Source: Hyaloraphidium curvatum SAG 235-1 (lineage: Eukaryota > Fungi > Monoblepharomycota). From it: 64,000 nucleotides of DNA. The DNA is taken from positions 372,001 through 436,000 of the forward strand of contig JAIVFI010000043.1 of the NCBI GenBank assembly GCA_025558095.1, in the 5' to 3' direction. The stretch's first letter is position 1. Every line of letters starts with the position of its first letter. Positions 1 to 59,892 of this stretch are shown one piece after another. The notes under the pieces were generated by a model, which saw only the letters and a list, made by a program, of their open reading frames with translations, was not told where the DNA came from and searched no databases. Position numbers and translations under genes: made by a program.

Positions 1-2553
1 TCCAAGCGCTTCGTCTTGTTCACGGATGCCAGCGATATCGGCCTCGGCGCGGTGCTCAGCCAGCGGGACTCCGATGGCAAGGAGTACGTCATCGCCTACG
101 CCAGCCGCGCTCTGCAGCCGAACGAGCGCAAGTGGGACACTCGGGAGCGCGAAGCCCTGGCCGTTGTTTGGGCATGCGAGCATTTCCGGGCGTATTTGAT
201 CGGGGACGAGTTTGAGGTGGTCACCGACCATAGCGCCCTCAAATGGCTCTTGGAGACCTCCAAGCCGGGCCGCCTACAGCGCTGGATCCTCCGGCTCTCG
301 GACTTCAGGTTCCAGATCATCCATCGCTCGGGCAAAGCGAACTCCAACGCCGACTTCCTGTCTCGTCAGCTCGTGGCGCCGTCGCCCGACGAGGACGTGC
401 CTATGGGCGACCCCGAGGAAATCTTGGACATCCCTGCCTTTTGGCCCCCAAACCCTCCCGACCCCTTGCCTTTTTCTTCTTTTTCTGGGGGGGGACGGGC
501 GCCCGGATTCCTCTCCGGGAGTGATCTCGGTCAGACTTCCCGTTCTTCGTCAACCCCAGTCACCGAGTCAGACTCGGGACGAGCTACTGCGGGTTCCTCA
601 GTCAATTGTGAATCAATGGAGCGAGTGCTGTCTGGCACGGAGTTCCCGGCCACGGTTGCCGCAGTGGAGGGAACCCTGTGGAGCGATCCGGGGACCCTGC
701 CCGAGGCTGCGGCACCGGAGACGCAGATCCTCCTGCCGATCCCAACGACGAACGCACAGGTCGACCCGGCAGACGTGCCTGAGCGAGACCTGGCGTTCCT
801 TCATCCGGCACTGCTTGAGGTGCTACCCGATGTCGGGGGCATCAGTGCTATTGACCTTGCCGACGTCAGATCCCGGGATGCCCTGCGCAAAGTGCAAGAA
901 GCCGACGTCGAGACCAGCGCGCTGATCCGCTTCGTACGAGACGGGGAGCTCCCTCCCAACGTGAATCTGGCCAAATTCTGCAAGAAGTACGGCGAGCAGT
1001 ACTTCCTCGCTACGGACGGCGTGCTCTGCCGGCGCGATGTACTCGCGACTGGTACCCGTCGTATCCCGGTCACCCAGCTCGTGATACCGCACGAGCTGAG
1101 GGAGGCCTACCTGCAACGTGCGCACGACGATCCCCTGAGCGGGCACGTCGGGCGACACCGGGCGTACAGCAATCTGCGGCGCCGCGTATATTGGGTCGGC
1201 ATGGCGCACGACGTTCGCCGCTGGACGCGAGCCTGCCTTACATGCATGACCCGGAAGATGCCTTCGGTATCGAACCAGGGCTTACTGAAATCGGTTCCTC
1301 TCACAGGTCCCAACGAGGACATCTACATCGACTACATCGGCGAGATCAATCCGGCCACGCCCCGCGGCAACAAGTACCTTCTCGTCGTCTACGATCCGTT
1401 CACTAAATGGGTCGCGGCGTATCCGACTCCGGACCTCTCTGGGCCGACGACGGCGAAGCTGCTCTATACGCGATGGATTCTCGAGCACGGTCTTCCGAAG
1501 CGGATTCACCACGACAACGCCTCGAACCTGGACAACCATTACATGGAGTACCTGCTCAAGCTACTCGGCATCAACCGGGGCCTGGTCACGGTTGGGCATC
1601 CCAGGGCTTCCCTCGCGGAGCGCCCGAACCGGTGGATCATCGACGCCCTGAGCGCAGCGGTCTCCAAGAACTACCAGACATGGGACGAGGACATCGTGGG
1701 GGTCATCTTTGCCTTCCGGACCTCCATCCACGCGACGACCGGCGAAACTCCGTTCTTTCTGATGCATGGTCGGGATGCTCGTATTCCGCTCGACCTACTT
1801 TACGACGAGACCGAGATTCGCGAGCCAGTGCACCTGCGGGCCAGCGACGAGGAGGACAAGAAGACAGAGGATGAGCGCCGGCGGACCTACGTCGTGGAGC
1901 TCGTGGCGCAGCTTCGTGCGGCCTACGACCTGGTGGCCGAGAAGATGGCCGCAGCGGCGGAGACTCGGAACGCCAAGGCCAACGCTACCCGGCTTCCGAT
2001 TACCTTCCGCCCCGGCGACCTCGTGCTCATCTGGGGACCAGAACGACCGCGCAAGGGCGAGCCGGGCAAGTTCGTCTCTCGTTATCTTGGGCCCTACCGC
2101 ATCGAGGAGTCAGGCCACACCGAGCTCACCTGGAAGTGTAGACACGTCTACGAGACCGACCACGTCACCACTGTGCATGTGGACCGGCTGGCGCGCTACA
2201 AGCCTTGGGAGTCGGCCACCTTCAACGCGCGCTCGTGGAACGCACGCGCCCCGGAGCTCGCCGCCGGTGAAGAGCTCGATCTCTCGGAACCGGTGAACGA
2301 GTTCGAAGAGGAAATCGAGGTCGAGAACGCGCTTGGGAACGAGCAGGAGTACACCGTCGAGGACATCGTCGGCCACGAGGGCCAGGGTCACGGACTCAAG
2401 TTCGAGGTCAAGTGGCGGGGCTTCGCTCGCACGACCAAGCTCCCTCTGGACATGTTGCACGGCGCCATAGGGATCGTCCGCGCCTATGCCGATCGCGTTG
2501 GTCTCCAGCTCCCGACGGGTCTCCCCAGGCGCATGCGGACTCGGCGTCGCTAG
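1..2553 (+). CDS. pol: pol polyprotein, partial: RNase H, HHCC zinc finger, rve integrase, GPY/F motif, chromodomain
   Basis: TDASDIGLGAVL and EREALAV..TDH (RNase H); HDDPLSGH...CLTC; IDY..D, HDN, ERPNR (DDE); YLGPYRI; EYTVEDIVGH..FEVKWRGF chromodomain; uninterrupted ORF. Confidence 0.96.
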   Translation, partial: SKRFVLFTDASDIGLGAVLSQRDSDGKEYVIAYASRALQPNERKWDTREREALAVVWACEHFRAYLIGDEFEVVTDHSALKWLLETSKPGRLQRWILRLSDFRFQIIHRSGKANSNADFLSRQLVAPSPDEDVPMGDPEEILDIPAFWPPNPPDPLPFSSFSGGGRAPGFLSGSDLGQTSRSSSTPVTESDSGRATAGSSVNCESMERVLSGTEFPATVAAVEGTLWSDPGTLPEAAAPETQILLPIPTTNAQVDPADVPERDLAFLHPALLEVLPDVGGISAIDLADVRSRDALRKVQEADVETSALIRFVRDGELPPNVNLAKFCKKYGEQYFLATDGVLCRRDVLATGTRRIPVTQLVIPHELREAYLQRAHDDPLSGHVGRHRAYSNLRRRVYWVGMAHDVRRWTRACLTCMTRKMPSVSNQGLLKSVPLTGPNEDIYIDYIGEINPATPRGNKYLLVVYDPFTKWVAAYPTPDLSGPTTAKLLYTRWILEHGLPKRIHHDNASNLDNHYMEYLLKLLGINRGLVTVGHPRASLAERPNRWIIDALSAAVSKNYQTWDEDIVGVIFAFRTSIHATTGETPFFLMHGRDARIPLDLLYDETEIREPVHLRASDEEDKKTEDERRRTYVVELVAQLRAAYDLVAEKMAAAAETRNAKANATRLPITFRPGDLVLIWGPERPRKGEPGKFVSRYLGPYRIEESGHTELTWKCRHVYETDHVTTVHVDRLARYKPWESATFNARSWNARAPELAAGEELDLSEPVNEFEEEIEVENALGNEQEYTVEDIVGHEGQGHGLKFEVKWRGFARTTKLPLDMLHGAIGIVRAYADRVGLQLPTGLPRRMRTRRR

Positions 2554-2623
2554 TAACACCAACGACGTCTATCCGGTCACAGCACTACCATCTCTGTGCT
2601 CCGATCCCCGGCTTTTCACTGAC

Positions 2624-3609
2624 TCAAACCCGACGTACTACCTCGAGCCTATCCTCGACCCCCTCGAACGCCAACTTGTGATACCCGGACTGAAAATGCG
2701 TGTTCAGATTGCCCAGGAGGCCCTTAGCCTTGTGCTTTACCAGATGGCACCACGGGAACGAGCATACCGCCACTTCGCCCTTGGTGGGGCTCCGGTACAG
2801 TTCGCCGGCGTACGTTCCGGCAATCTTCCATCGGAGGAAGGAGCCTGCCGGCACGGCATCAGGGACCTTCTTCGTCACCCGTTCCGCCTTCAAGCCCCAG
2901 ACCGGCGACGACTTCTTCATCTGGCACATTCAGTGACGATCAGCGCTTGTGGGGCGTACTCCCGTCGAGCCGTTCACCTGCGCAATCTGCTCCCGGGCCT
3001 CCCCGCGCTGCACCACATGCCCCTCGTCTTTACCTGAAGTTGCCGTTTGGGCCGTCTGGAAGGCGCTCCCTTGTTCAGTGGCGGCCTCGAAGTCGCCTAA
3101 GTGGTCCAGCTCCCAAGAGGGCGCATGAAGCGTGACTGACAGCACGGGGACTTCGTCGGCCGCCTCGAGCTCCTCCCTCGAGTCCGCCGCCGACTCGCCC
3201 TCGCCGACGGAAGGCGCACCCTTCGACGACATCGCCGGCAGGAAGACGCCGGAGGTCCGGGTTGCGGCCGCGGCCGCGATCGGGTCGTTGCCTCTGGCCC
3301 CGCCAGCCTCGCGCAGCTTGGCGGTCCCGCCGGCCTCGCGCAGCTCGGCGACGAGCCGACGGAGCACTCGGACCTCGACAACGACGTTCCCAGCCTCTTC
3401 GGCCAGCGGCAACATCCCGCGCATGGCGGCCAGACGCACCAGTTGCAGGAAGCAGTCGACCACGTCGTCCTCCTGGCGCGGCGCTGAGCTCCCGTTCGAG
3501 GACCACGCCGCTACGCTCTTACCTTGGTGCACAGCAGGACGTCGAAGGTCGGCAACCGAACCTCGAACCACGAACTCGGCGGGACGACGTTCGGCAGCTC
3601 CGCACTCAT
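2624..3609 (-). CDS. Antisense spliced accessory gene of the retrotransposon (~292 aa) with a C-terminal C2H2 zinc finger
   Basis: ATG 3609; exons 3609-3523, 3472-2978, 2920-2624; introns AAG|GTAAGA...GCCAG (50 nt) and CAG|GTGAAC...CTGAT...GCCAG (57 nt), both phase 0, join three track ORFs in frame; C-x4-C-x16-H-x5-H at 2764-2678. Confidence 0.7.
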
Positions 3610-3749
3610 GACAGGCGCGGAGATCCCCCCAGCTCTTCTGGACCCTACGTCGCGATCCCCCGCGAGCGCTTTCGTCGACGCAATGGCGTACGGCCCTCGC
3701 TCGCGCCCCGTCCCCCGTGGCGGGGACTGGTGACCCGGTGTGCGGGCGA

Positions 3750-3886
3750 ACTCGCGGTCGACTCGACTCGCAGTTGACTCGCGGTTGACTCGCGGTTGGC
3801 TCGCGGTTGACTCGCAAGTGACTCGCGAGTCACTCGCGAGTCGCTCGCAAGTCACTCGCGAGCGACTTGCGATGCACTCGCGAGTT
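3750..3886. repeat. Internal tandem array of ~12 x 11-bp units, consensus ACTCGCG(A/G)(G/T)T(G/C), palindromic core ACTCGCGAGT
   Basis: Directly visible: actcgcggttg, actcgcaagtg, actcgcgagtc...; CATATAAG at 3902-3909 just downstream. Confidence 0.95.
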
Positions 3887-3977
3887 GCCTGCGCTTCGCA
3901 CCATATAAGCGGCGGACCACAGGAGGCCGCGGCCGCGGACTACGCACCCAACGTCGACCTCGCCGCTACCGTCTCCC

Positions 3978-5243
3978 ATGGCGACCCCCACGACTGCCGG
4001 CCACAACCTGCGGCCCCGCCGGCCGCATGTGGCCACGGCGCCGCCGCCGGCGACTGCGCCCGTCGCTGCGTTGCCTGGCGTCGTACCCCCGGACTATCGG
4101 TCGGCGCTTGCCTCCCTCTCGACCCGGCTGGACGACCTCCGGGCCGACCTCGACGTCAGACACTCCCAGACGACGGCCCACTTGCACAAGGTCGAGCAGG
4201 CCGCCTTCTCCGCGGTCATGCCCATCCGCGCAGCCCTCGACGCACTCCACCCGGTGCTCAACACCCTCGTCAATGTCGGCAACCTGGAGCAGCACGCTCT
4301 TGACCGCGTAACGGCGACGCTCGAGCAGCAAGAGGCCCGCCTGGACGCCCAGATCCGCCAGCAGCGTGACGAGCTCCAGGTGGTCCTCAGTGGCCGCCAC
4401 CGCGAACTTGAGTTCGCCGTCACCGCCTTGCGCCGGACCGACGACGCTCGTCTCGGTGCCATCGAGACGCAGCTCGACCGGCTTGCGTTGGTGCTCGAGG
4501 CTCAACGTCAGAACTTCAACGGCATTCTCCTGGTGGACGAAGCTACCATCGAGGAGTTGAGGGAGTTCGGCTCTTCCCTCGCCGGGCTGGTTGCTCAGAC
4601 CGGGACCAACCTCGAAACCACCATCGAGACCGTCGTCGAGACCAATCTCGCCCGTCACAACAATGGCCCCATGGCGGAGTTTGCGGCCGACCTCAAGAGC
4701 GTCCTGGCGGCCCATCTGCAGCGATTTGGGTCGGAGCAGCACAAGCAGCTCATGCTTTCAGCTCAAGACCACACCACGCTCCTCACGGCCGGCCTGAACG
4801 CGCAGCGCGAGCACTTCACCAAGACCGCCGACGAGCAACGGGCCCTCCTGCGTCGCTTCCTCGGCAATCAAGTGGCTCCCCTGGCGGGGCAAACGACGCC
4901 CGCCGTGGTCACCTCCACGCCGGTCGGCCGCGTCAAGGACGAGGACCTCGTCACCTCCGACGATGAGGCTGGGGATATGCAACCTCCAGCTCCTCGCCCC
5001 GAGAGCGTGTCCAGCAGCGACGCCTCCTCCATCGTCTCGCAGGACGACGGCCTCTTGGCCGCCCTGTACGACGACATCCCGGCCGCTCCCTACAAGTCGA
5101 CCATGCCCCCGGTCTACACCCCCTCGGCCGCGGACGGCTCAGCCGTGCATGCCGCCTTCGCTCTCGGCTTTACCCGCCGGCTCCGCGCCCCGCCGCCGAG
5201 CGACGACGAGGCGGACGCCGACGTCGACTTTGAGGACGCCTAA
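3978..5243 (+). CDS. Retrotransposon accessory sense ORF, 421 aa, long predicted coiled coil, acidic/Pro-rich C-terminus
   Basis: Intronless ATG-TAA ORF inside the element; L/Q/E heptad-like composition; no signal peptide or TM segment. Confidence 0.75.
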   Translation: MATPTTAGHNLRPRRPHVATAPPPATAPVAALPGVVPPDYRSALASLSTRLDDLRADLDVRHSQTTAHLHKVEQAAFSAVMPIRAALDALHPVLNTLVNVGNLEQHALDRVTATLEQQEARLDAQIRQQRDELQVVLSGRHRELEFAVTALRRTDDARLGAIETQLDRLALVLEAQRQNFNGILLVDEATIEELREFGSSLAGLVAQTGTNLETTIETVVETNLARHNNGPMAEFAADLKSVLAAHLQRFGSEQHKQLMLSAQDHTTLLTAGLNAQREHFTKTADEQRALLRRFLGNQVAPLAGQTTPAVVTSTPVGRVKDEDLVTSDDEAGDMQPPAPRPESVSSSDASSIVSQDDGLLAALYDDIPAAPYKSTMPPVYTPSAADGSAVHAAFALGFTRRLRAPPPSDDEADADVDFEDA

Positions 5244-5366: not shown

Positions 5367-5385
5367 CTTCTTTTGGGTGGGGGCG
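5367..5385 (+). promoter_or_regulatory. U-box plus polypurine tract (PPT)
   Basis: CTTCTTTTGGGTGGGGGCG immediately before the LTR-opening TG at 5386. Confidence 0.7.
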
Positions 5386-5861
5386 TGCGAAGGTACAGGA
5401 CGTCTGACATTCGGACAAGGGTATTTTCATTTTCGGTTCGGAGGCGTGGAGGCGTCGGTCCTCGCGATCGACTCGTGATCGACTCGCGATCGACTCGCGA
5501 GTGACTCGCGAGTCACTCGCGAGCGACTCGCGAGCGACTCGCAAGTGACTCGGCACAGCCACCCTCCTGGGATATATAAAGAGCGGGACATGTAACAGTA
5601 CAATCTTGATCGCCAGTTGACTCTACGTGCTCTCCGTGTCGTTCGACCACCGTGCGGAACCCCGCCCGGCCGGATCCTCGTTCTGAGAGCCCTTGGGACG
5701 CACCCCGGGAGACATCCCGTAACCTCTTTCCCCCGGCTACAGTCAAGTATCTTCAGCGCTGTTCGCTTATTCATATTCAGGGCCTATCCGACCCGAAGAG
5801 CCGAGCGGGATTCGCGCGCCGGGTTAGAGCTTCAGGCCCGGTTCCGACCCGGACCGTCGCA
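5386..5861 (+). repeat. 3' LTR (476 bp)
   Basis: Starts TGCGAAGGTAC, ends GGACCGTCGCA (9/11 inverted match); contains the 11-bp array and TATATAAA at 5573-5580; partner 5' LTR not in window. Confidence 0.75.
5460..5552. repeat. LTR U3 tandem array of ~8 x 11-bp ACTCGCGA(G/T)NN units
   Basis: Directly visible; same unit as 3750-3886; ends ~20 bp upstream of the TATA box. Confidence 0.95.
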
Positions 5862-6657
5862 CTTACTTGTACGCTTCCGGCTTTGCCTCCCGCTCCTGCA
5901 CGAGGCCGACTACCCTGGTCTTTCCTTGCCCTGCCGGCGGGGCTGCAAGCGATCGGCCATGTCGCTGACGGGGGAGCACGCGTTCTCGGGCTGCTATGGC
6001 CGGGATCTCTTCAGTCCTGGTCACGACGACATTTGCGCGGCCATCCGCGCGGCGCTTCGCTCCATCCCGCTCCTCCGCGTGCACCCCATGCCGCCAAACC
6101 TCCTTGCGCATGGCTACGAGACTGTCACCCCGCCCACGCCTGCGGATGCTGGCCGCCTTGGCGACGTTCTCATCACGCACCGCGAAACCCGGAAACGGTG
6201 GTTGCTCGAGATCAAGACCCTCACCTCTATGGCCCATTTGCACACGGGCCTGGTCTTCTCGGTCCCGGGCCACGCAGTCGGACGGCGGGTCGAGGCCGCC
6301 AGGAAGGACTACTCCCGTTTCGTCTTCAACGCCAACTTCTACCCTCTGATCGTGCTTGCTTTTGATTCGTACAGCGCTGTCTCTGCCACTTTCTCGCGCT
6401 TCTCCTCGGAGATGGGGCGCATCCAGTATCCCGGGATCGTCGGCCGCGATGGACAGCCCGTGGACCTCGATGGCCTTTACTCTCGTTTTGTGCGGCGCTT
6501 CCGCGAACGGATCGCGGTGGCCTGGGCTCTTGGCTTCGCGGCCCAACTCCAACACTGGCTTCAGCTGTGCACCGAAGCCGCCGCTGTCAACGCTCCGGCC
6601 CCCGCGCCGGTCGCATTTGGTTTGAATGTAGATGAGGAGCTGATTCTTGGGGCGTAG
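5862..6657 (+). mobile_element. 3' end of a CRE/R2-type non-LTR retrotransposon ORF (zinc knuckle plus restriction-like endonuclease), interrupted by the Gypsy element
   Basis: VRFRLCLP (RLGLP-like); CRRGC-x10-H-x4-C knuckle; GHDDI (RHD-like); RLGDVLI...LLEIKT (PD-(D/E)xK); ARKDY; FYPLIVLAFDSY. Confidence 0.7.
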
Positions 6658-6715: not shown

Positions 6716-9082
6716 ATGGCGTCCGACGGCGAGCGGGGCCGCGATGGCGACCGGAAGGGCGAAAAGAAGGACAAGAAGCGGCGACGCTCGCGGTCGTCGA
6801 GCGGCTCGTCGGACTCGGACGCCGAGCGGCGACGGCGGAAGCGGAAGGAGAAGAAGGAGCGGCGGCGCGACCGCCACAAACACGCCGACGGGCAGCGCGG
6901 GGGCGGGGAGGAGCTCTGGGTCGAGAAGGCGCCGGCGGCGCCCGCAGCGGCGGGTGGTGCCCAGGCGGGGAGCCGGGAGGCCCCGAAGGAACCAGAGGAA
7001 CGCCCGACGGACACGGCCCCTGCGCCGGCTCGGCCCGCAGACGCCGGCTGGATGTCGTTTTCTGCTCCGAAACGGGACGACGATGCCGCCGAGGACGAAA
7101 ACACCGGGGCAGCAGCGGCGGTCGACTCGGGCCGACCGTCGGACCCATTCGCGGCCATGTTCGACGCCTCGACCACGCAGCGCAAGTCCAAGGCCGAGCT
7201 GCAGGAGGAAAAGCGCGCAGCCGAGGCGCGCCTGCGCGAGCCCGGCCGCTCGGACCGCGAGCTGAACCCGTACTGGAAGGACGGCGGCGACGGGCTTCCG
7301 TCCGACCAGCGGAAAAGGAAGCACGAGTACGGCGACGCCGGCTCCGCTTGGCGGATGCTGAAGCTGCGCAAGGCGAGGGAGATGGCTGAGGAGGAGGGGC
7401 GGAGCATCGAGGAGGTGGCGCTGGAGCGGTTCGGGTCGATGGAGGAGTACCTGGACGCCGTGGAGGAGCGGAAGTACCTCGACGCCCGCGGCAGGGGCTC
7501 GTCGGGCGGCCGCGACCGTGACAGGGACAGGGACCGCGATAGGGACGGGCGGCGAAGGGTGGAGGACCGCGACGTGGCCGGCCGCGCCGTGCTGGCCGCC
7601 CGGGGCGAGGCCTTCAGGCGGGCCGGCGACGACGGCGGGCGGTGGTCGCCCGCCCAGGGATCCCGCTCGGGCGGCACCCCGAGGACGGATACCCCGGGCT
7701 CGGACGCCGATCGTTGGCCCAACGACGGCACTTCCAAGCCCGCCGCGCCGACATCCGCCTCCCGCTACCCCCCCGTCTCCATCCCCTCCGCCATCCCCAC
7801 CCCGCCGCCCGGCACCCCGCCGCCCGGCCGCCCCGTGCTCACCACGGACCAGCTCAACAAGCTCCAGGCCCGCATCCTCAAGGCCCGCATCTCCAAGGAC
7901 CCCAACCTGCCCGCGCTGGAGCGCGAGTACGCCGAGGAGAAGCGCCGCGCCGCCGCGGCGCCCCCGGACGTCGTCGTGCTGCCCACCGTCGACTCGCGCG
8001 GCAGGCTGCAGGACCTCCCTTCTGGCTCCGCTTCGGGACCTCCGCGGTCTGCGGGACCGGCCAAGCGCGCCAAGCCGTGGGCCGCGGACAAGGCGCAGGG
8101 CGACGCCGAGGCCGACCCGTCCCGCGCGCCCGATCTTATGGAGCTGCTGCGGAGGGAGAAGATGGGCGTGGGGGAGGGGTACGACCGCGAGCTGGCGGAG
8201 CGGATCGCGCGGGACTCGGCGTTCCGGGACAACCTGGACTACATGGACGAGCAGTCGGACCGCATGGCCCGGCAGGTCGGGAGGTCGGACGACAAGAAGA
8301 GGCAGACGGCGGTGGACGACCACCGGAGGATGCAGACGGCGCTGGAGCGGTGCGCGTACTGCTACCAGGACGAGGGCAAGACGGCGCCCAAGGTGCCCGT
8401 GGTGTCGCTGGGGAACAGGACCTACCTGGGCCTGACGCAGACGGTGGAGATGGCCAAGGGGCACTGCGCGATTGTGCCGGTGCAGCACGTCAACAACTCG
8501 CTGGAGCTGGAGGACGACGCGTGGGAGGAAGTGAGGGTACGTCGCTCAAAGTGTTGTCTGGCCCGACTGCCGCTCATCCCTCCCCTCTTTCAGAACTTCA
8601 TGAAGTGCCTCACCCAGCTCTACGCCACCTTCGACCCGCCCTGCTCCCCCATCTTCATCGAGTCCTTCGCCAACCCCAAGCACCGCCGGCACTGCGTCAT
8701 CGAGGCCATCCCGGTCCCGCAGGACCTCGCCGCCGACGCCCCCGCCTACTTCCGCGACGCCCTCCAGAGCGCCGAGGAGGAATGGACGGTGCACCGCAAG
8801 GTGATCGACACGCGCGAGGGCGGCATCCGCCGGCACATGGTCAAGGAACTGCCCTACTTCCACGTCTGGTTCGGGCCCAACGGCGGCTTCGGCCACGTGA
8901 TCGAGGACTCGGCGTCGTGGCCGGACTGGTTCGGCAAGGAGGTGGTCGCGGGGATGATGGACCTGCCGCCGGAGCTGTGGAGGAAGCCGCGGTGGGCGGA
9001 CCGCAGGGACGAGGCGGGGAGGCTGAAGAGGTTCAGGGAGGGGTGGGACGCGTTCGACTGGACCAAGGCGCTGGATGAGTGA
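6716..9082 (+). CDS. CWF19L2: CWF19-like protein 2 (CwfJ C1/C2 domains), spliceosome/lariat-associated
   Basis: LNPYWKDGGDGLP, GDAGSAWR, CAYC, GHCAIVP, HCVIEAIP, PYFHVWF, GFGHVIED; in-frame 57-nt intron 8537-8593. Confidence 0.92.
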   Translation: MASDGERGRDGDRKGEKKDKKRRRSRSSSGSSDSDAERRRRKRKEKKERRRDRHKHADGQRGGGEELWVEKAPAAPAAAGGAQAGSREAPKEPEERPTDTAPAPARPADAGWMSFSAPKRDDDAAEDENTGAAAAVDSGRPSDPFAAMFDASTTQRKSKAELQEEKRAAEARLREPGRSDRELNPYWKDGGDGLPSDQRKRKHEYGDAGSAWRMLKLRKAREMAEEEGRSIEEVALERFGSMEEYLDAVEERKYLDARGRGSSGGRDRDRDRDRDRDGRRRVEDRDVAGRAVLAARGEAFRRAGDDGGRWSPAQGSRSGGTPRTDTPGSDADRWPNDGTSKPAAPTSASRYPPVSIPSAIPTPPPGTPPPGRPVLTTDQLNKLQARILKARISKDPNLPALEREYAEEKRRAAAAPPDVVVLPTVDSRGRLQDLPSGSASGPPRSAGPAKRAKPWAADKAQGDAEADPSRAPDLMELLRREKMGVGEGYDRELAERIARDSAFRDNLDYMDEQSDRMARQVGRSDDKKRQTAVDDHRRMQTALERCAYCYQDEGKTAPKVPVVSLGNRTYLGLTQTVEMAKGHCAIVPVQHVNNSLELEDDAWEEVRVRRSKCCLARLPLIPPLFQNFMKCLTQLYATFDPPCSPIFIESFANPKHRRHCVIEAIPVPQDLAADAPAYFRDALQSAEEEWTVHRKVIDTREGGIRRHMVKELPYFHVWFGPNGGFGHVIEDSASWPDWFGKEVVAGMMDLPPELWRKPRWADRRDEAGRLKRFREGWDAFDWTKALDE

Positions 9083-22314: not shown

Positions 22315-23579
22315 ATGAGCACGAGCGGGGTGCGGAAGCCGCGGCGCCGGCCCCGGTCGCGGGACGCCGGCGCGGTGCCGCTGCCGTCCCCGCCGCCGAG
22401 TTCCCCCGCCGCGCCGAGCGCCGTGGCAGCCGGCCACGCGCGCCGCAAGCAGTACCGCGTGCTGCACGGCGTGCTCGGCGCCGGCAGCCAGGGCGCCGTG
22501 CGGCTCGCCGTGGGGCCCGCGGGGCTGTGCGCGATCAAGACAGTGGGGGTCGCGCCGGGGAACGCCGACGCTGCGGAGGCCGTGCGGAGGATGAAGGCCG
22601 TGTGGGGCATCGTGCCGGAGCATCCTGGGATCGTGCGGCTGCTCGATTCGTTCCGGACGCGCAGCAAGTTCTACTTCGTTAACGAGTTCTGCGAGGGAGG
22701 GGTGGGTCCAGGCGGATAATCCGAACTCGAAGCCCGCCTCACCGCTTCCCTGCCCACAGGACCTCGCAAAATACCTCGAGCGGCACGCCGGCGAGATCGA
22801 AGAGGGCGAGTCCCGGGAGATCGTCCGCTCCCTGCTTGTTGCAGTGGACTGGCTGCACTCGCACTGCATCGTGCACCGCGACTTGAAACCCGCGAACGTG
22901 CTGCTGCGGGACGCATCCCGGCCGGCCGGGACGCTCTGCCTCGCGGATTTTGGGAGCTGCTTCGTGGAGGATCCCGCACGGACGGCAGACGGCCCGGGCG
23001 GGTCGGACTCGCCCATGAACACCATCTCCTCGATGCGCTCACTGTCTGACAGCCTCCGTGCCGGCTCCAGCACCCGCATGGACGCCATGAGGACTATCGC
23101 AGGTAGCCCGATGCGCGCTCGGCTCAAAGCCTCCCCTGATCAATCCCCGCCTCCCAGGTACGCCGTCCTACCTAGCCCCCGAGCAGATCCGCGGCATCCC
23201 TTACGGCCCCGGGGTCGACCTGTGGTCCCTGGGCTGCATCACCTACGTCCTTTTCTTCGGCGTGCACCCTTTCTCCCATGCGGGTTCGTTCCAGGACCTC
23301 TACGGGCGCATCGTGCGCGCCGAGTACCCGGTCCCCCAGGAATCCCCGGCCCCGGACGCGGCGCTGGAGTTCCTGGCATCACTGCTCACCGCCGACCCCG
23401 CTGCGCGACCATCGGCCGCAGACGCGCTGCGGGATCCGTGGATGCTGGCGCCGCGAACCGCGCCACCGCCGAGGCCGCGGGATGACGGCGGGGGATACGA
23501 GGTGCTGCTAAACGATTTAGGAGAGCTAGTGCTGGCGGATCTGGAAGTGGCGGACGACAGCGGGATGTTGCCTGCTTAG
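22315..23579 (+). CDS. CAMK-like Ser/Thr kinase, paralog K1 (subtype A)
   Basis: GAGSQG, CAIK, HRDLKPAN, DFG, SPE, DLWSLG; two introns (~22702-22759, ~23103-23157). Confidence 0.9.
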
Positions 23580-23771
23580 GCTGCGGACGCGGATCGCTCG
23601 CCAGTCGCGGGGAGTCCGCGGTCGAAGGAAGGGGGGACTGGCGGGGGGCCAGAAGCAGCGCGGCAAGCGGCGCCGCTCCAACTGAAGCCGGATCCCGTAC
23701 GAGGAAGTTCTTAGCTTTGACTTCGGACATCAGCAGGGGTCATCTTCCTCATCCGAACCATGGACAGCGCG

Positions 23772-25099
23772 CTAACTCCCCTTGCGTGAAAGGTACGTGC
23801 TGTCGTGTGACGCGTCCACGTCGGCGAGCACTAGCTCACCCAGCTCGTTCAGGGTGACTGCGTAACCCTCCTCGGGTAAGCCACCGTTCGGCGGGGATGC
23901 CCCCGCCATCCAGGGATGCGACGCCGCGTCCTCGGCGGACATCCGTGACTCGGGGTCGACAATCAACAGCGATCGGATGAAGCAGGCCGCCTGAGGGGAT
24001 ATAGGTCGGTCCGGAGGGAGCTCGTAGTCCGCCCGGCCGATGCGCGAGTACAGTTCCTGGAAGGAGCCGACAACCTGGAAGGGGTGTCGCCCGAAGAGCA
24101 GCTCGTAGACGATGCAGCCCAGGGACCACATGTCGACGCCGGGGCCGTAAGGAAGGCCACGGATGATTTCGGGTGGAAGGTAGAACGGTGTCCCTAGATG
24201 AAAGCCAAACGTGAGAGTTATGGACAGCTGGAGCTCGACGCGACGTACCAGCCAGCGTCTGCATCGCAGTGATGCTCGAGCTCGATCCGCGCCGTGTTTG
24301 ATTGCCGATCAGCAGGGGAGGGTTTGGCCTGTCGTTCGGGGACGTGGCCGCGGAGAAGAGGGTGACCGGCGAATCCGGCTCTCCCGGAGTGTTCCTCCCC
24401 GAGCCGTCCTCGTCCTCTCCCGCACCATCCACAAATGAACTGCCAAAGTCCGCCAGGCACAGGGTTTCGGCCGGGCGTGAAGAGTCTCTGAGGAGCACAT
24501 TGGCCGGCTTCACATCCCGGTGCACAACTCCGTGGGCGTGCAGCCAGCGCAGCGCCGACAGGATCGCAAAGGCAATGTTACGGGCCTCCTCCTCGCCGAT
24601 GGCACCCGCGTGACGCTCCAGGTACAGTGCCAGGTCCTGCAAACAGCTCGGTCAGTCAAAATGCCTGCCCTCGTAAAGACCGGCGTCCACCAACCCCGCC
24701 GGCGCAGTACTCGTGCACAAAGTACGCCTTGCCGCTCGTCCGGAAAAAGTCGAGCAGCCGCACAACACCGGGGTGGTGCGGCCGAATGGCAAACACCGCC
24801 CGCATGCGACGCACCATCTCGGCCGCGTCGGCGTCGCCCGGCAGCGTCTCGACGGCCTTGATTGCGCACACGCCCGGCGGCCCCACGGCGAGCCGTACGA
24901 CGCCCTGGCTGCCAGACCCCACGACGGGTTGCAGCGTGCGGTAGAGCCTCCGCCGTGCCCGGCCGGCTGCGAACGAAGACCGGGAGCTGGGCGACCGCGG
25001 CGGGGTGGTCGGTGGGCGGACCGGCGCCGCCGAGGGCGGAATCTCGAGGCTGTCCACAGACGGAGAGGGAGAAGGCACTGGTATTGGCGAGCGTTGCAT
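23772..25099 (-). CDS. CAMK-like Ser/Thr kinase, paralog K2 (subtype B)
   Basis: GSGSQG, CAIK, HRDVKPAN, DFG, PPE, DMWSLG; same two intron positions as K1. Confidence 0.9.
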
Positions 25100-30916: not shown

Positions 30917-32235
30917 ATGAATCGCACTCCAATATCCGCGGCCGAAGCCGCCATGCCGCCGCGCAGGCGGGAGACGCTCCCCGCGGGGGCTCCGTCCCGC
31001 TCGCCGCCGGCGGCACCGCCCTCCCCGGTGTCCGCGCCCGCCGAGGGCCGCGCCCGCCGCAAGCTCTACCGGACGCTGCAGCACTCGATCGGCTCCGGCA
31101 GCCAGGGCGCCGTGCGGCTCGCGATGGGCCCGCCCGGCGTGTGCGCGATAAAGTCCGTCGAGACGCCGGCGGGCGACGCCGATGCCGACGAGGTCGTGCG
31201 GAGGATGCGGGCGGTTTTCGCAATCAGGCCGGAGCACCCCGGCGTCGTGCGGCTGCTCGACTTCTTCCGGACGAGGAGCAAGGCGTACTTTGTCCACGAG
31301 TACTGCGCCGGCGGGGTGGGCGGTCCCCGGTTGCGGGAAGTGGCAAGCATGTGACTGACGCCGGAGTTGCAGGACCTGGCGGCCTACCTCGCCCGCAGCG
31401 CGGGGCCCGTGGGCGAGGAGGAGGCCCGCGACATCACCTTTGCCATCCTGTCGGCGCTGTGCTGGCTGCACGCCCACGGGATCGTGCACAGGGACCTGAA
31501 GCCGGCCAACGTGCTATTGAGGGACGCCGCCCGCCCCGCAGATACCCTGTGCCTCGCCGACTTCGGCAGCGCCTTTGTCGAAGATCCGGGAGACGATGAA
31601 GAGGACCCGGAGAGGACGGTGCCGGGCGAACCGGGTTCCCCGGCAACTGTCTACTCGGGGCTGGCGTCTCCCGGAAGCAGCTCCGGTCTTTCCGGGCCGT
31701 TCCCCAGGACACGCCGCGGTTCAAGCTCGAGCTTCACCGCGATGCAGACCCTAGCAGGCAAGCGCAGTCCCCGTTCTTGCCCTCCTTCAGCCCTGACCTC
31801 TGCCTTGCAGGCACCCCCTTCTACCTCCCCCCCGAAATCATCCGCGGCCTCCCCTACGGCCCCGGCGTCGACATGTGGTCCCTCGGCTGCATCGTCTACG
31901 AGCTCCTCTTTGGCCGCCACCCCTTCCAGGTCGTCGGCAGCTTCCGGGAGCTGTACCAGCGCATCGGCCGTGCGGACTACGAGATCCCCGTGGACCGGCC
32001 CGTCTCCCCGGACGCGGCATCCTTCATCCGCGCGCTGCTGGCAGCGGACCCCGAAGCGCGGATGTCGGCCGAGGAGGCGACCGCGCATCCCTGGATGGCC
32101 GGCGCGGCGGGAACGCGCGCGGCGGAGGGAGAGGAGGGCTACGCGGTGGTCCTGAACGAGCTGGGCGAGCTGGTGCTCGCGGACCTGGATGCGGCGGACG
32201 ACAGCGGGTACCTGTCGCGCAAGGGGAGCGGGTGA
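30917..32235 (+). CDS. CAMK-like Ser/Thr kinase, paralog K3 (subtype B)
   Basis: Start MNRTPIS matches K2 MQRSPIP; all core motifs; second intron is GC-AG (31758-31810). Confidence 0.9.
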
Positions 32236-49622: not shown

Positions 49623-50961
49623 ATGAGCCTCCCCGCCCCGCAAACCCCTCGCACCCCGGGATCCCCTTGGCCGGTGGATGCCACGGCGGCCACCTGGCCG
49701 GGCTCGCCACCGCCGACTGATCCTGCAGCAGATGGCCACGCGCGGCGCAAGCTGTACCGCGTGCTCAACAGGCTTGGCGCCGGGGCCCAGGGCGGTGTCC
49801 GGCTGGCCGTCGGGCCGGCAGGCCTGTGCGCCATCAAGACTTTGGAAGCACCCGCCGGCGACGCGAGAGCGGCCGAGACAGTGCGGAGGATGAAAGCCGT
49901 GTGGAATATCGTGCCGGAGCATCCGCACATCGTGCGGCTCCTGGATTGCTTTCGGACACGGAGCAAGGTCTATTTCGTCAACGAGTTCTGCGCGGGAGGA
50001 GTGGGTCTTCCAGCCGAGGCTGCAAACCGGGCATTCCCGCTGACTGATGCTCATTCGCCACCTCCACAGGACCTTGCCAAGTACCTCTCGCAGCACGGCA
50101 GCCGGATCGACGAGGACGGAGCCCGCGAGATCTCCCGCTCCCTGCTCTCGGCGCTCGAGTGGCTCCACTCGCGCTCCATCGTCCACCGGGACGTGAAGCC
50201 GGCCAACGTGCTTCTGCGGGACGCGTCGCGGCCGGCCGAGACGCTCTGCCTCGCGGATTTCGGGAGCTGCTTCGTGGAGAACCCGGAGCGGGACGTGGAA
50301 GAGGGGCAGGGTCCAGAGACGCCGGCGACGGTCTTTTCGGGTTTCCGCTCCGTCTTCGACGGCCCGCGTGCTGGCTCCAGCACGAGCATGGATGCGATGC
50401 AGAGCCTCGCAGGTGAATCGATGATATGGCTCTGTTCCGCGCCTTCTCTCATTCCAATCCCCGCCTTCAGGCACACCCTTCTACCTCGCCCCCGAGCTGG
50501 TCCGCGGCATTCCCTACGGCCCTGGGGTCGACCTCTGGTCCTTCGGCTGCATCTTCTACGAGCTCCTCTTTGGCACGCGTCCTTTTTCCCTCACGGGCTC
50601 GTTCGAGGACCTCTACGGCGGCATCCTGCGCGCCGAGTACCGCGTGCCCGACGACAGCGCGGCATCCACGTCCGCACTGGAGTTTCTCGCTTCTCTGCTC
50701 ACGGCCGAACCCGCCGCGCGGCTCTCGGCGTCGGATGCCCTGCGATGCCCGTGGATGCTTGCCCGCACTGCATCGCTCTGCGCCCCGAGGCCGCGGGACG
50801 ACGGCGGTGGCTACGAGGTTTTGTTGAACGAGATGGGGGAGCTCGTGCTGGCGGATCTGGACGCGGCGGACGACAGCGGGCTGTTGCCAACGTGGACGGC
50901 GGTGGACGGGACGGCGAAGCCGGGGAAGGCGTCCGCAGGGGGCAGCCTGCCCACAAACTGA
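49623..50961 (+). CDS. CAMK-like Ser/Thr kinase, paralog K4 (subtype A)
   Basis: GAGAQG, CAIK, HRDVKPAN, DFG, APE; same two introns; tail PRPRDDGGGYEVLLNEMGELVLAD. Confidence 0.9.
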
Positions 50962-57375: not shown

Positions 57376-59892
57376 ATGCGATCTTTTGCCACCTTGTCCG
57401 CCGCGGCTGCCGCGCTGGCCCTCGCGGCGCTGCTCGCCTGTGCGGGCGTCCCCCTCGCGGCCGCCGGCCCCGTGCGCCGGCAGCTGACGCCGGACTGGGC
57501 CGCCGATCTCTCCGCCGGTTCCGCCGCGGCACGCCAGCTGCCCGCCGCGCCCTCGGCCGCCTCGACGCCGTGCGCGGCGCTGCCCGTCGCGGCGGACTGG
57601 CGGTGCGGCCCGGACTTTGGCGCGCGCTGCCCCGACGGCCTGTGCTGCTCGCGCTTCGGCTGGTGCCAGGACAACGGCGGCGATTCCGATCCTCGGTGGT
57701 GCGGCGACGGCTGCCAGCTCGGGTACGGCAAGTGCCTGTTCCCGGCGGGCTCCCCCGTCCCGGACGCCGTGTGCCCGACCGCCTCGGCAAGGGCGCCGCC
57801 GACCACCGTGTCGGCCTCGACGACGGTTTACGCAGCCTGCACCACGGTCCCCGAGGCGGCGGACGGCCGCTGCGGGGCCGAGTTTGGCCGGCGGTGCCCG
57901 GACGGCCTGTGCTGCTCCCAGTTTGGGTACTGTCAAGGTGCGTTGGACCCCTCCCGGCCGATGATCTGCGAGCTCACCGGCATGATCTTCCAGACGACGG
58001 CAGCGACTCCGGGGCAGCCTGGTGCGGCGACGGCTGCCAGCTCGGCTTCGGCAAATGCTTCCTGCGCCCCGCCCCGCCCCGCTTCTCCTGCCCCACGCCG
58101 CGGCCCGACCCCACGCCGACCTACCAGCTGACCACCATGTCGTCGTCGACGCCGGTCTACATGGCGTGCCCGGATCTGCCCGTGACCGAGGACGTGCGCT
58201 GCGGACCCCAGGCCGGCAGGCGCTGCCCCGGCAACCTGTGCTGCTCGCAGTGGGGATTCTGCCAAGGTGCGTCGCCGCTCCGCCCCGTGCATCTGCCTGC
58301 CTGCTCATCTTCTGCTGCATGCTGCAGACGACGGCGGCGACTCTGGCGAGCCCTGGTGCGGCGCCGGTTGCGAGCTCGGCTGGGGCAAGTGCTTCCTCGG
58401 TACCGCGCCCTTTGCCTCGGATTTCGCATGCCCCACGCCGACCTCGGACGGCCCGCCGCCGACGTACCAGCTCACCTACGTGTCGGCCGCGACGCCCGTG
58501 TACATGGCCTGCCCGACGCTGGCGGTATCGACCGACGGGCGGTGCGGGGAGGGGTTTGGGACGAGGTGCAGGGACGGGTACTGCTGTTCGCAGTGGGGAT
58601 GGTGGGTAAATGCACCGCCGGGCTACCCAGCATCCGCTGACTTTGCTTTTGCCGGCTTCAGGTGCCAGGACAATGGGGGCGACTCGGGCTACTCGTGGTG
58701 CGGCGAGGGATGCCAGCTCGGCTTCGGCAAGTGCTTCGTCGGGTCGGCGCCGCTCTCGACCGCCTTTTCGTGTTCGGCGAGTCCCACGGCGGTGCCCGAG
58801 ACTGGCGTGCCGACGCCCCCGCCCGCTTCGACCTCGGAGGTAACACCGACGAGCACGGCCGCACTGCCGACCACCGAGACCTCGGCAACCGCTGCCTCGA
58901 CCACGGTCGCACAGCCAACTACAACCGCCACCCCCGCGCCGTACGTCGGCCTGCGCATGACGGCCGACTGCCCCTCGGGCACCTTCCGCGTGCGCAACGG
59001 CAACGCCTTCTCTGTGCCCTACAGATGGGACGTCTTTGGCGGCTCCCTGAACGGCAGCGGCGTCGCGGCACCCGGCACGACGATGGGCGCGATCGACGTG
59101 CGCCCGCTGACTGGGGTCACGGTGCGGCTGTTCGTGAACGGGACGGTGCTGCAGGATACCAAGGCTCAGAAGCCGGCGTCGGACTGCCCCGCGGATACCA
59201 CGGCTGCGGGGCCGACCAACACCGGGGCGGCATCGACAATCGTGCCGCCGGCCACGTCTTCCGTCACTCGTCCGGCCAGCACAACCGCTCAGCAGCCGGG
59301 AACGACGACGCGAACGACAGCCACCTCCACGCCCGTCGACACGATCCGCCAGGCCCTCACCTCGCAGACCCTGCCGTGCCCGGCCTTCTCCCTCGGCTCC
59401 GGCCTGTCGACGAACCCCATGTTCCCCTTCATCAGCAACCTCGCCTGCGACTCACCCCTCGCCACCCTGCGCTTCTGGAACGCCACCGCGTTCCCCCTCA
59501 ACTTCGGCGGCTGCAACTCCCAGGGCCGCTTCGACGTGCTCGCCTTGAACGGCACCTTCGTCCCCGCCCCCGACCGCTCGCAGATCGCCTTCCCCGCGGG
59601 CGTCGACCCCTCCGCCCCGCAGCTGGACATGGACTTTTACGTCACGGGTACCTCCCTGCAGCGCCGCAACTGCGGCACCGAAGCGCAGGGCAGCACCCAG
59701 GCGCCGTCGTTCTACGCCTCCGCGCTCCGGGGGCGTGTGCTCCGGCTGCAGGTCTCGTGCGCAAACGGGGCCTACGCGGGCCCGCTGTACTTTGCCTGGT
59801 CGGACCCGCAGTACTACGGAAGGCAGAACTCGACGATGGTGCAGCTGTTCAACTGCCTGGGCGGAAAGGTGGCCGGGGTCACCACGCCGTGA
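57376..59892 (+). CDS. Secreted protein with 4 CBM18 (hevein) chitin-binding domains, Thr linkers and an unnamed C-terminal domain
   Basis: 4x CG...C....CCSxxGxCQD.GGDS...WCG.GC.LG.GKC; introns 57938-57993, ~58267-58327, 58602-58661. Confidence 0.9.

Follow-up and report, generated by a model that had tools for sequence, protein, structure and literature searches.

The window, a stretch of 64,000 nucleotides from Hyaloraphidium curvatum, opens within a Ty3/gypsy LTR retrotransposon that carries an antisense gene between pol and a putative 3′ LTR, and the features of this element are shown in Table 1. The interval between pol and the LTR measures 2,832 bp, and the antisense gene sits in it between the pol stop codon (2553) and the purine tract with the adjoining LTR. 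An internal array of 11-bp repeats lies between the divergent ATG codons of the antisense gene and of a second accessory ORF in the sense direction (3609 and 3978, respectively), placing the two genes head-to-head.

Table 1. Positions of the element's genes, exons, repeat arrays and terminal structures in the window
Feature	Position	Strand	Description
pol, 3′ part	1-2553	+	codes for RNase H, integrase (H2C2 and rve core) and a weak chromodomain; frame still open at the first base of the window
Antisense gene, exon 3	2920-2624	-	98 aa plus stop; predicted beta-sheet, then Cys/His motif
C-x4-C-x16-H-x5-H motif	2678-2764	-	residues 247-275; nucleotide ends derived by hand from the residue numbers
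Antisense gene, intron 2	2921-2977	-	57 nt, GT..AG, phase 0; in-frame stop inside
Antisense gene, exon 2	3472-2978	-	165 aa; short conserved helix-like stretch, then acidic, poorly conserved middle
Antisense gene, intron 1	3473-3522	-	50 nt, GT..AG, phase 0
Antisense gene, exon 1	3609-3523	-	29 aa, ATG at 3609
Internal 11-bp repeat array and TATA	3766-3908		11 consecutive units, core TCGCGA; TATAA at 3904-3908; putative promoter
Sense accessory ORF	3978-5243	+	421 aa, intronless, no known family
Polypurine-tract-like G-rich run	5375-5385	+	after TTTT, directly before the LTR
Putative 3′ LTR	5386-5861	+	476 bp, TG..CA, 7 of 8 terminal bases inverted-complementary
LTR 11-bp array	5461-5552		8 units, inside the LTR; TATA box after
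TATATAAA	5573-5580		within the LTR

As in other Ty3/gypsy elements, RNase H is found upstream of integrase in pol, and a purine tract is followed by a TG..CA terminal repeat. Pfam searches of pol gave RT_RNaseH at 1-102 (6e-40), Integrase_H2C2 at 362-420 (6e-18) and rve at 436-534 (1e-6), together with a weak Chromo match (E 6e-4, 20 bits against a cut-off of 25.1) over profile positions 1-27 of 53. One RNA contig has a different sequence ahead of 5862, which matches the expectation for an element inserted there. The 5′ LTR, primer site, target-site duplication, gag, protease and RT would all fall outside the window. In the integrase the second Asp and the Glu are 34 residues apart (pol residues 505-540), the usual distance being 35, and the approximately 235 residues between RNase H and integrase (376-1080, plus strand) are without a Pfam match and make up a longer stretch than the matching one of the nearest pol. 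A quick tree was calculated from RNase H and integrase, and 42 of 52 matches were kept, the remaining 10 having been dropped for short coverage. The element paired with P0004 (99) outside a clade of 17 rows (99) containing a row named Tf2. P0004 and P0058 (ENA), which hold the nearest pol, have, besides a chromodomain, a Dam adenine methyltransferase placed between protease and RT, and the DAM-LTR elements in the available text of bioRxiv 10.64898/2026.05.21.726589 resemble this layout; in the present element the corresponding part is not covered by the window.

When rebuilt from the sequence, the antisense gene model has 292 codons in three minus-strand exons joined via two phase-0 GT-AG introns, and the coordinates of the three-exon gene of about 292 aa proposed in a preliminary description of this DNA were found to be exact. 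The introns had there been called host-typical in length, which holds for the 57 nt of intron 2, equal in length to the host intron at 8537-8593, the one host intron on which the comparison rests. A frame of at least 292 aa arose in 1 of 300 dinucleotide shuffles of 2554-3760 (median 92) when any ATG-to-stop frame with up to two comparable phase-0 introns was accepted, and the best frame on the plus strand of the same stretch was 113 aa under identical rules. Three further ORFs of the window, namely pol, the 421-aa sense ORF and the CwfJ-like host gene nearby, served to train a codon model, in which each of the three exons scored best in the frame of the minus-strand gene (0.26, 0.39 and 0.26); the other five frames ranged from -1.16 to 0.05, and no frame of 3610-3759, upstream of the antisense ATG, scored above zero. 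The GC3 of the antisense gene is 0.82, against 0.78 in pol and 0.92 in the one host gene checked. The encoded protein is uneven in charge, exon 3 being basic (17 K+R, 8 D+E) and residues 96-194 acidic (6 K+R, 17 D+E). Exon 2 contains a 27-nt duplication, in frame, at 3299-3350, and no AATAAA-like signal is present in the roughly 320 nt that follow the stop codon.

Splicing of the antisense gene was followed in RNA data consisting of Logan contigs from one public run of one study, with a 0.95 share of the region. The RNA label of this run is presumed, and that it is RNA is argued because a host intron (8537-8593, GT..AG ends) is also skipped in its contigs. Both junctions of the antisense gene were seen there, intron 1 being skipped exactly by joint 3472>3523 (depth 611, shorter flank of 82 letters) and intron 2 by joint 2920>2978 (depth 198, shorter flank of 255 letters). 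The contigs are unstranded, pool near-identical copies and cannot give strand, start site or level; it is from the ends of the two joints, CT..AC on the plus strand, that antisense transcription is inferred. No intron-retaining contig was found in the run, where the bin depths of 164.5 and 486.2 match those calculated for empty introns, and since contigs drop variants this says nothing about the genomic RNA. A single long contig covers 3522-5413 gap-free and so spans the sense accessory ORF, which agrees with its earlier description as intronless, and a protein identical over all 421 aa is present in NCBI. Because this contig spans 3522-5413, a start of the antisense transcript in the 3′ LTR is possible. 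Low-depth variant contigs at 1494-1623, 2456-2520 and 4901-4909 suggest that relatives of the element which are more distant are transcribed in this run too.

The antisense protein was searched against 1.84 billion representatives, two of which matched at E 0.001 or better. The one homolog, KAI9034073.1 (P0001; 274 aa, E 4e-11), is also from Hyaloraphidium curvatum and is 45% identical to exon 3. The C-x4-C-x16-H-x5-H motif, located near the C-terminus as had been claimed, corresponds in the homolog to C-x4-C-x18-H-x5-H, with C, C, H and H all kept (2 of 2 sequences) and Trp, Gly and Asn positions conserved as well. It is this conservation, present in a single homolog, that carries weight; the motif alone proves little because a loose C2H2-like pattern occurs 9 times across the six frames of the window. 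Where exon 2 meets exon 3 the alignment has no gap, and the two proteins share a stretch of 20 residues in the early part of exon 2 (0 of 1000 shuffles scored as high). Similarity is weak for exon 2 as a whole (19 of 1000 shuffles as high) and none was found for exon 1 alone (534 of 1000), and the global alignment has 84 identities in 319 columns. The second match (P0002, E 4e-5), a protein with bacterial Ig-like repeats, was rejected as chance, covering residues 13-52 only and not the Cys/His motif. A word-indexed search of exon 3 against longer proteins scored 0 of 36 candidates. Scans for related loci gave 0 of 215 and 0 of 172 pattern matches in metagenome contigs, 0 of 49 and 0 of 6 in viral contigs and none by repeat pattern, and 2 of 46 in genome contigs, both put down to chance: L001 is the opposite strand of another ORF, presumably of an FKBP-type isomerase, and L002 is a 13-residue match. 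The antisense protein was absent from both protein searches and therefore seems unannotated, the sense ORF being annotated. Taken together, the antisense gene is very probably real and part of the element.

Further copies were met with in the RNA contigs and in the databases. A non-canonical joint from pol to exon 2, 1350/3390 (depth 104, shorter flank of 28 letters, 2 letters in common), removes 2,039 nt (1351-3389) and with them the integrase core, the putative chromodomain and most of the antisense gene, and is likely to come from a transcribed non-autonomous copy. In P0060, a gene model of H. curvatum that lies on a different contig, pol 907-1202 on the reverse strand is fused to the sense ORF from 4227 (4227-5240); the model is identical to the sense ORF in 337 of 338 residues and carries a silent G at 936, as does the RNA contig. 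Such a fusion fits an inversion of about 3.3 kb, in which case the antisense gene would face the direction of the LTR, or it may be an artefact of assembly; among the RNA contig joints listed for the run, none switches strand. Joint 1350/3390 and P0060 together indicate that the accessory region travels with pol and that the family is young.

The Cys/His motif had been described as matrin/U1-like, a label that was not upheld. Matrin/U1 fingers are spaced C-x2-C-x12-H-x5-H, and of C-x4-C-x16/18-H-x5-H only the H-x5-H fits. Pfam returned nothing for exon 3, for the motif alone or for KAI9034073.1 (E up to 1 or 10). The sole lead to a family, a weak one, is zf-BED: in Atlas, which uses language-model features, 12 of 30 matches fell in a set marked zf-BED, at a recognition of 2277, below the mark of 2300, and 12% of members in the displayed cluster carry zf-BED. 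No family is assigned to the top three Atlas matches, and full-length KAI9034073.1 gave no usable match there. BED fingers begin their helix with N-L/M-x-x-H, to which the antisense motif is similar. They also have a conserved Trp and Phe; in the antisense protein and its homolog Trp residues are kept ahead of the finger, and no match to the zf-BED profile was obtained in Pfam. The BED signature is given as C-x2-C-xn-H-x3-5-[H/C] in the available text of PMC9859435, from which the antisense protein and KAI9034073.1 both deviate by C-x4-C, their His spacing being in agreement. The motif is thus like BED and matrin/U1 fingers in its two Cys and two His and differs from both in C-x4-C instead of C-x2-C, in a predicted three-strand sheet before the finger and in the missing Pfam match. 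Sequence searches of the PDB gave nothing below E 0.09, the only row of one search being a KLF5 finger at E 0.77. AlphaFold2 models from two-sequence input reached pLDDT 43 and 63, and in the better one three strands precede the Cys pair, followed by a strand and by two helices carrying the histidines. With both models, fold searches returned no Z of at least 5 among 48,161 chains and no Foldseek E below 0.35; these searches are uninformative and hence no evidence for a new fold. The motif is best described as C2H2-type, unclassified and long-looped, and zinc binding is predicted for it.

A 19-nt pattern of two units matched 15 times in the window, all 15 inside the two arrays, and did not occur in 100 shuffles, and 10 of the 24 TCGCGA sites in the window fall in the arrays. 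The repeat core is palindromic and the period of 11 bp is close to one helical turn. An origin of the two arrays as inverted termini of a nested DNA transposon was rejected, the unit being near-palindromic, the TATA standing on the same side in both and the second array lying inside the LTR.

How a gene with introns can persist in a retrotransposon may be accounted for by its orientation. In genomic RNA, read in the pol sense, the introns would present CT..AC ends to the spliceosome and would be kept, and reverse transcription would then copy them into new insertions; minus-strand introns would be invisible to the spliceosome because this RNA is read in the pol sense. Reporter-intron cassettes apply the converse orientation rule, as described in the available part of PMC12786077. 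The orientation logic is standard, and we infer that the introns survived reverse transcription. That the sense ORF lacks introns is in keeping with this model, as weak evidence, many genes being without introns.

As to function, our tentative reading is that the 292-aa product is an element-encoded DNA-binding regulator of the 11-bp TCGCGA arrays, and hence of the transcription of the element. The Cys/His motif would bind zinc and the basic domain of exon 3 would bind DNA, the target being the repeat unit common to the internal promoter and the LTR. The antisense gene and the 421-aa sense ORF would be driven in opposite directions from the internal array, and activation might be the task of the acidic middle, so that a feed-forward or anti-silencing loop would arise. 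Such a regulator is favoured by three features read from the sequence, namely the basic charge of the finger domain, the acidic middle of the protein and the phased palindromic repeat at both likely promoters; against it counts that a single finger is a weak reader of DNA. More doubtful is the full circuit, similar to that of complex retroviruses, in which a spliced antisense long-loop C2H2 finger would read an 11-bp CpG-rich operator, present in the LTR and duplicated in the internal divergent promoter, and would activate, or shield from silencing, the genomic RNA, its own gene and the second accessory gene.

A different role for a genuine accessory gene, equally doubtful in our estimate, is post-transcriptional action via an RNA or protein partner, with the arrays read by host factors. 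The product might export or protect unspliced genomic RNA, suppress RNAi or take part in particle assembly with the product of the sense ORF. The H-x5-H followed by Lys resembles the RNA-binding matrin/JAZ fingers, but C-x4-C and a spacer of 16-18 residues misfit the matrin spacing, no matrin/JAZ match was found in Pfam and the sole family lead, although weak, is to a DNA-binding finger. A host factor could explain the arrays because fungal SBF/MBF recognise sites that also have a CGCG core (PMC4862756, in the part available). As precedents for an accessory protein of this kind, the extra ORF of a sunflower LTR element resembles dsRNA-binding proteins in the accessible text of PMC12844716, and CERV of Cer1 is reported to export genomic RNA.

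It is unlikely that the gene is captured cargo, that is, a host gene or nested element taken in reversed, which is expressed and of little use to the retrotransposon. Reverse orientation would by itself account for the retained introns, and the single homolog, KAI9034073.1, likewise comes from H. curvatum. Distant though this homolog is, the reading frame has stayed intact and both splice sites function, which argues for long selection, and the gene stands head-to-head on an array that copies a module of the LTR. An expressed variant does exist without 1351-3389, and so without most of the antisense gene, but the integrase core is missing from it as well, so that it would in any case be non-autonomous. 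The GC3 of the antisense gene, being intermediate between those of pol and the host gene, also speaks against cargo. Finally, a role of the antisense RNA itself, by transcriptional interference or as dsRNA directed at the genomic RNA, with the protein as a by-product, is very improbable despite the regulation of Ty1 by antisense RNAs and similar proposals for further elements in the available parts of the sources, because the coding bias in all exons, the frame-preserving splicing and the conservation of Cys/His, Trp and Gly residues in the 45%-identical homolog indicate selection on the protein.

Antisense genes between pol and the 3′ LTR have already been described in fungi and plants, which makes the idea less new. 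The closest case is brtn, the antisense gene of Boty-like Ty3/gypsy elements in Botrytis cinerea and Sclerotinia, which in the available text of PMC7264820, PMC8365987 and PMC4227169 is likewise an extra antisense gene between pol and the 3′ LTR of a fungal gypsy element, a chromodomain-bearing one there as against the weak chromodomain match here, and was likewise missed by annotation. The hosts of brtn are ascomycetes, whereas Hyaloraphidium is an early-diverging fungus (Monoblepharomycota, per NCBI), and the element described here differs further in having a sense ORF and a second, internal copy of the repeat module found in its LTR. Database searches with the antisense protein brought up no sequence link to brtn. 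The plant aORF-3R genes include gene23 of maize Grande, RIRE2 of rice and the TRP28 ORFs of Retand (PMC7264820 and PMC11963269, in the parts available), and the antisense coding region shares with them its place between pol and the 3′ LTR and its antisense transcription, the latter as read from both CT..AC joints of the one run. Grande gene23 is nuclear and has its own promoter according to the accessible text of PMC7264820, and for Retand antisense ORFs plus tandem arrays, with a proposed DNA-binding role, are reported in that of PMC11963269. The plant elements are, in the sources as available, non-chromoviruses with TRP28 or SMC domains, in contrast to the two spliced introns and the Cys/His finger motif found here; the words 'intron' and 'zinc' are not mentioned in the available Retand text (PMC11963269).

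Among animal retroviruses, an antisense-strand regulatory gene is known in hbz, which encodes a bZIP protein, and an internal promoter paired with the LTR promoter is known in foamy virus, where it works with Tas. No homology is implied by either likeness; the antisense start of HTLV-1 hbz is in the 3′ LTR (PMC5237517, available part). The principle of an element-encoded protein on the element's own short tandem repeats is that proposed here and is also represented by the VANC proteins, which bind tandem repeats of their own Arabidopsis transposon VANDAL (PMC12844716, in the part available). VANDAL is a DNA transposon, and binding and demethylation by VANC are experimental, whereas the binding proposed here is a prediction. 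No matching case was present in the available text of PMC12477816, PMC5408684 or bioRxiv 10.64898/2026.05.21.726589, and literature searches, largely of open-access papers, turned up no work that deals with this element, with retrotransposons of Hyaloraphidium or with a C2H2-type gene that is both antisense and spliced within an LTR element.

In a review of the extra ORFs of retrotransposons their functions are called unknown and a search for antisense and spliced transcripts is called for (PMC7264820, available part). The locus is an RNA-supported case in a young, intact element beyond plants and ascomycetes, and one that ORF-based annotation missed. It is distinctive in its RNA support, its early-diverging host, its finger without a family and the internal copy of the LTR repeat and TATA between divergent accessory genes. 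A candidate DNA-binding domain is here paired with a candidate 11-bp target at two promoters, which makes self-regulation testable. If the product is a self-regulator, LTR retrotransposons would have reached the transactivator and internal-promoter design of complex retroviruses independently, and if it is not, the locus is still a clear intron-bearing gene carried by a retroelement.

Beyond the LTR, the element seems to be inserted in a multi-copy, highly represented sequence (5862-6657, plus strand; depth about 2,100-2,900, several variants), and contigs have different sequence ahead of 5862 and behind 6654. Pfam gave nothing in the open frame of 5862-6657, which contains a motif that we take to be like the restriction-type endonuclease ending some non-LTR retrotransposons. 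Elsewhere in the window (22373-24993, 31001-32230 and 49686-50902; 57571-58751) there are four related gene copies with 65-83% identity, one of them inverted, and a separate gene with four Cys-rich repeats, which resemble chitin-binding modules.
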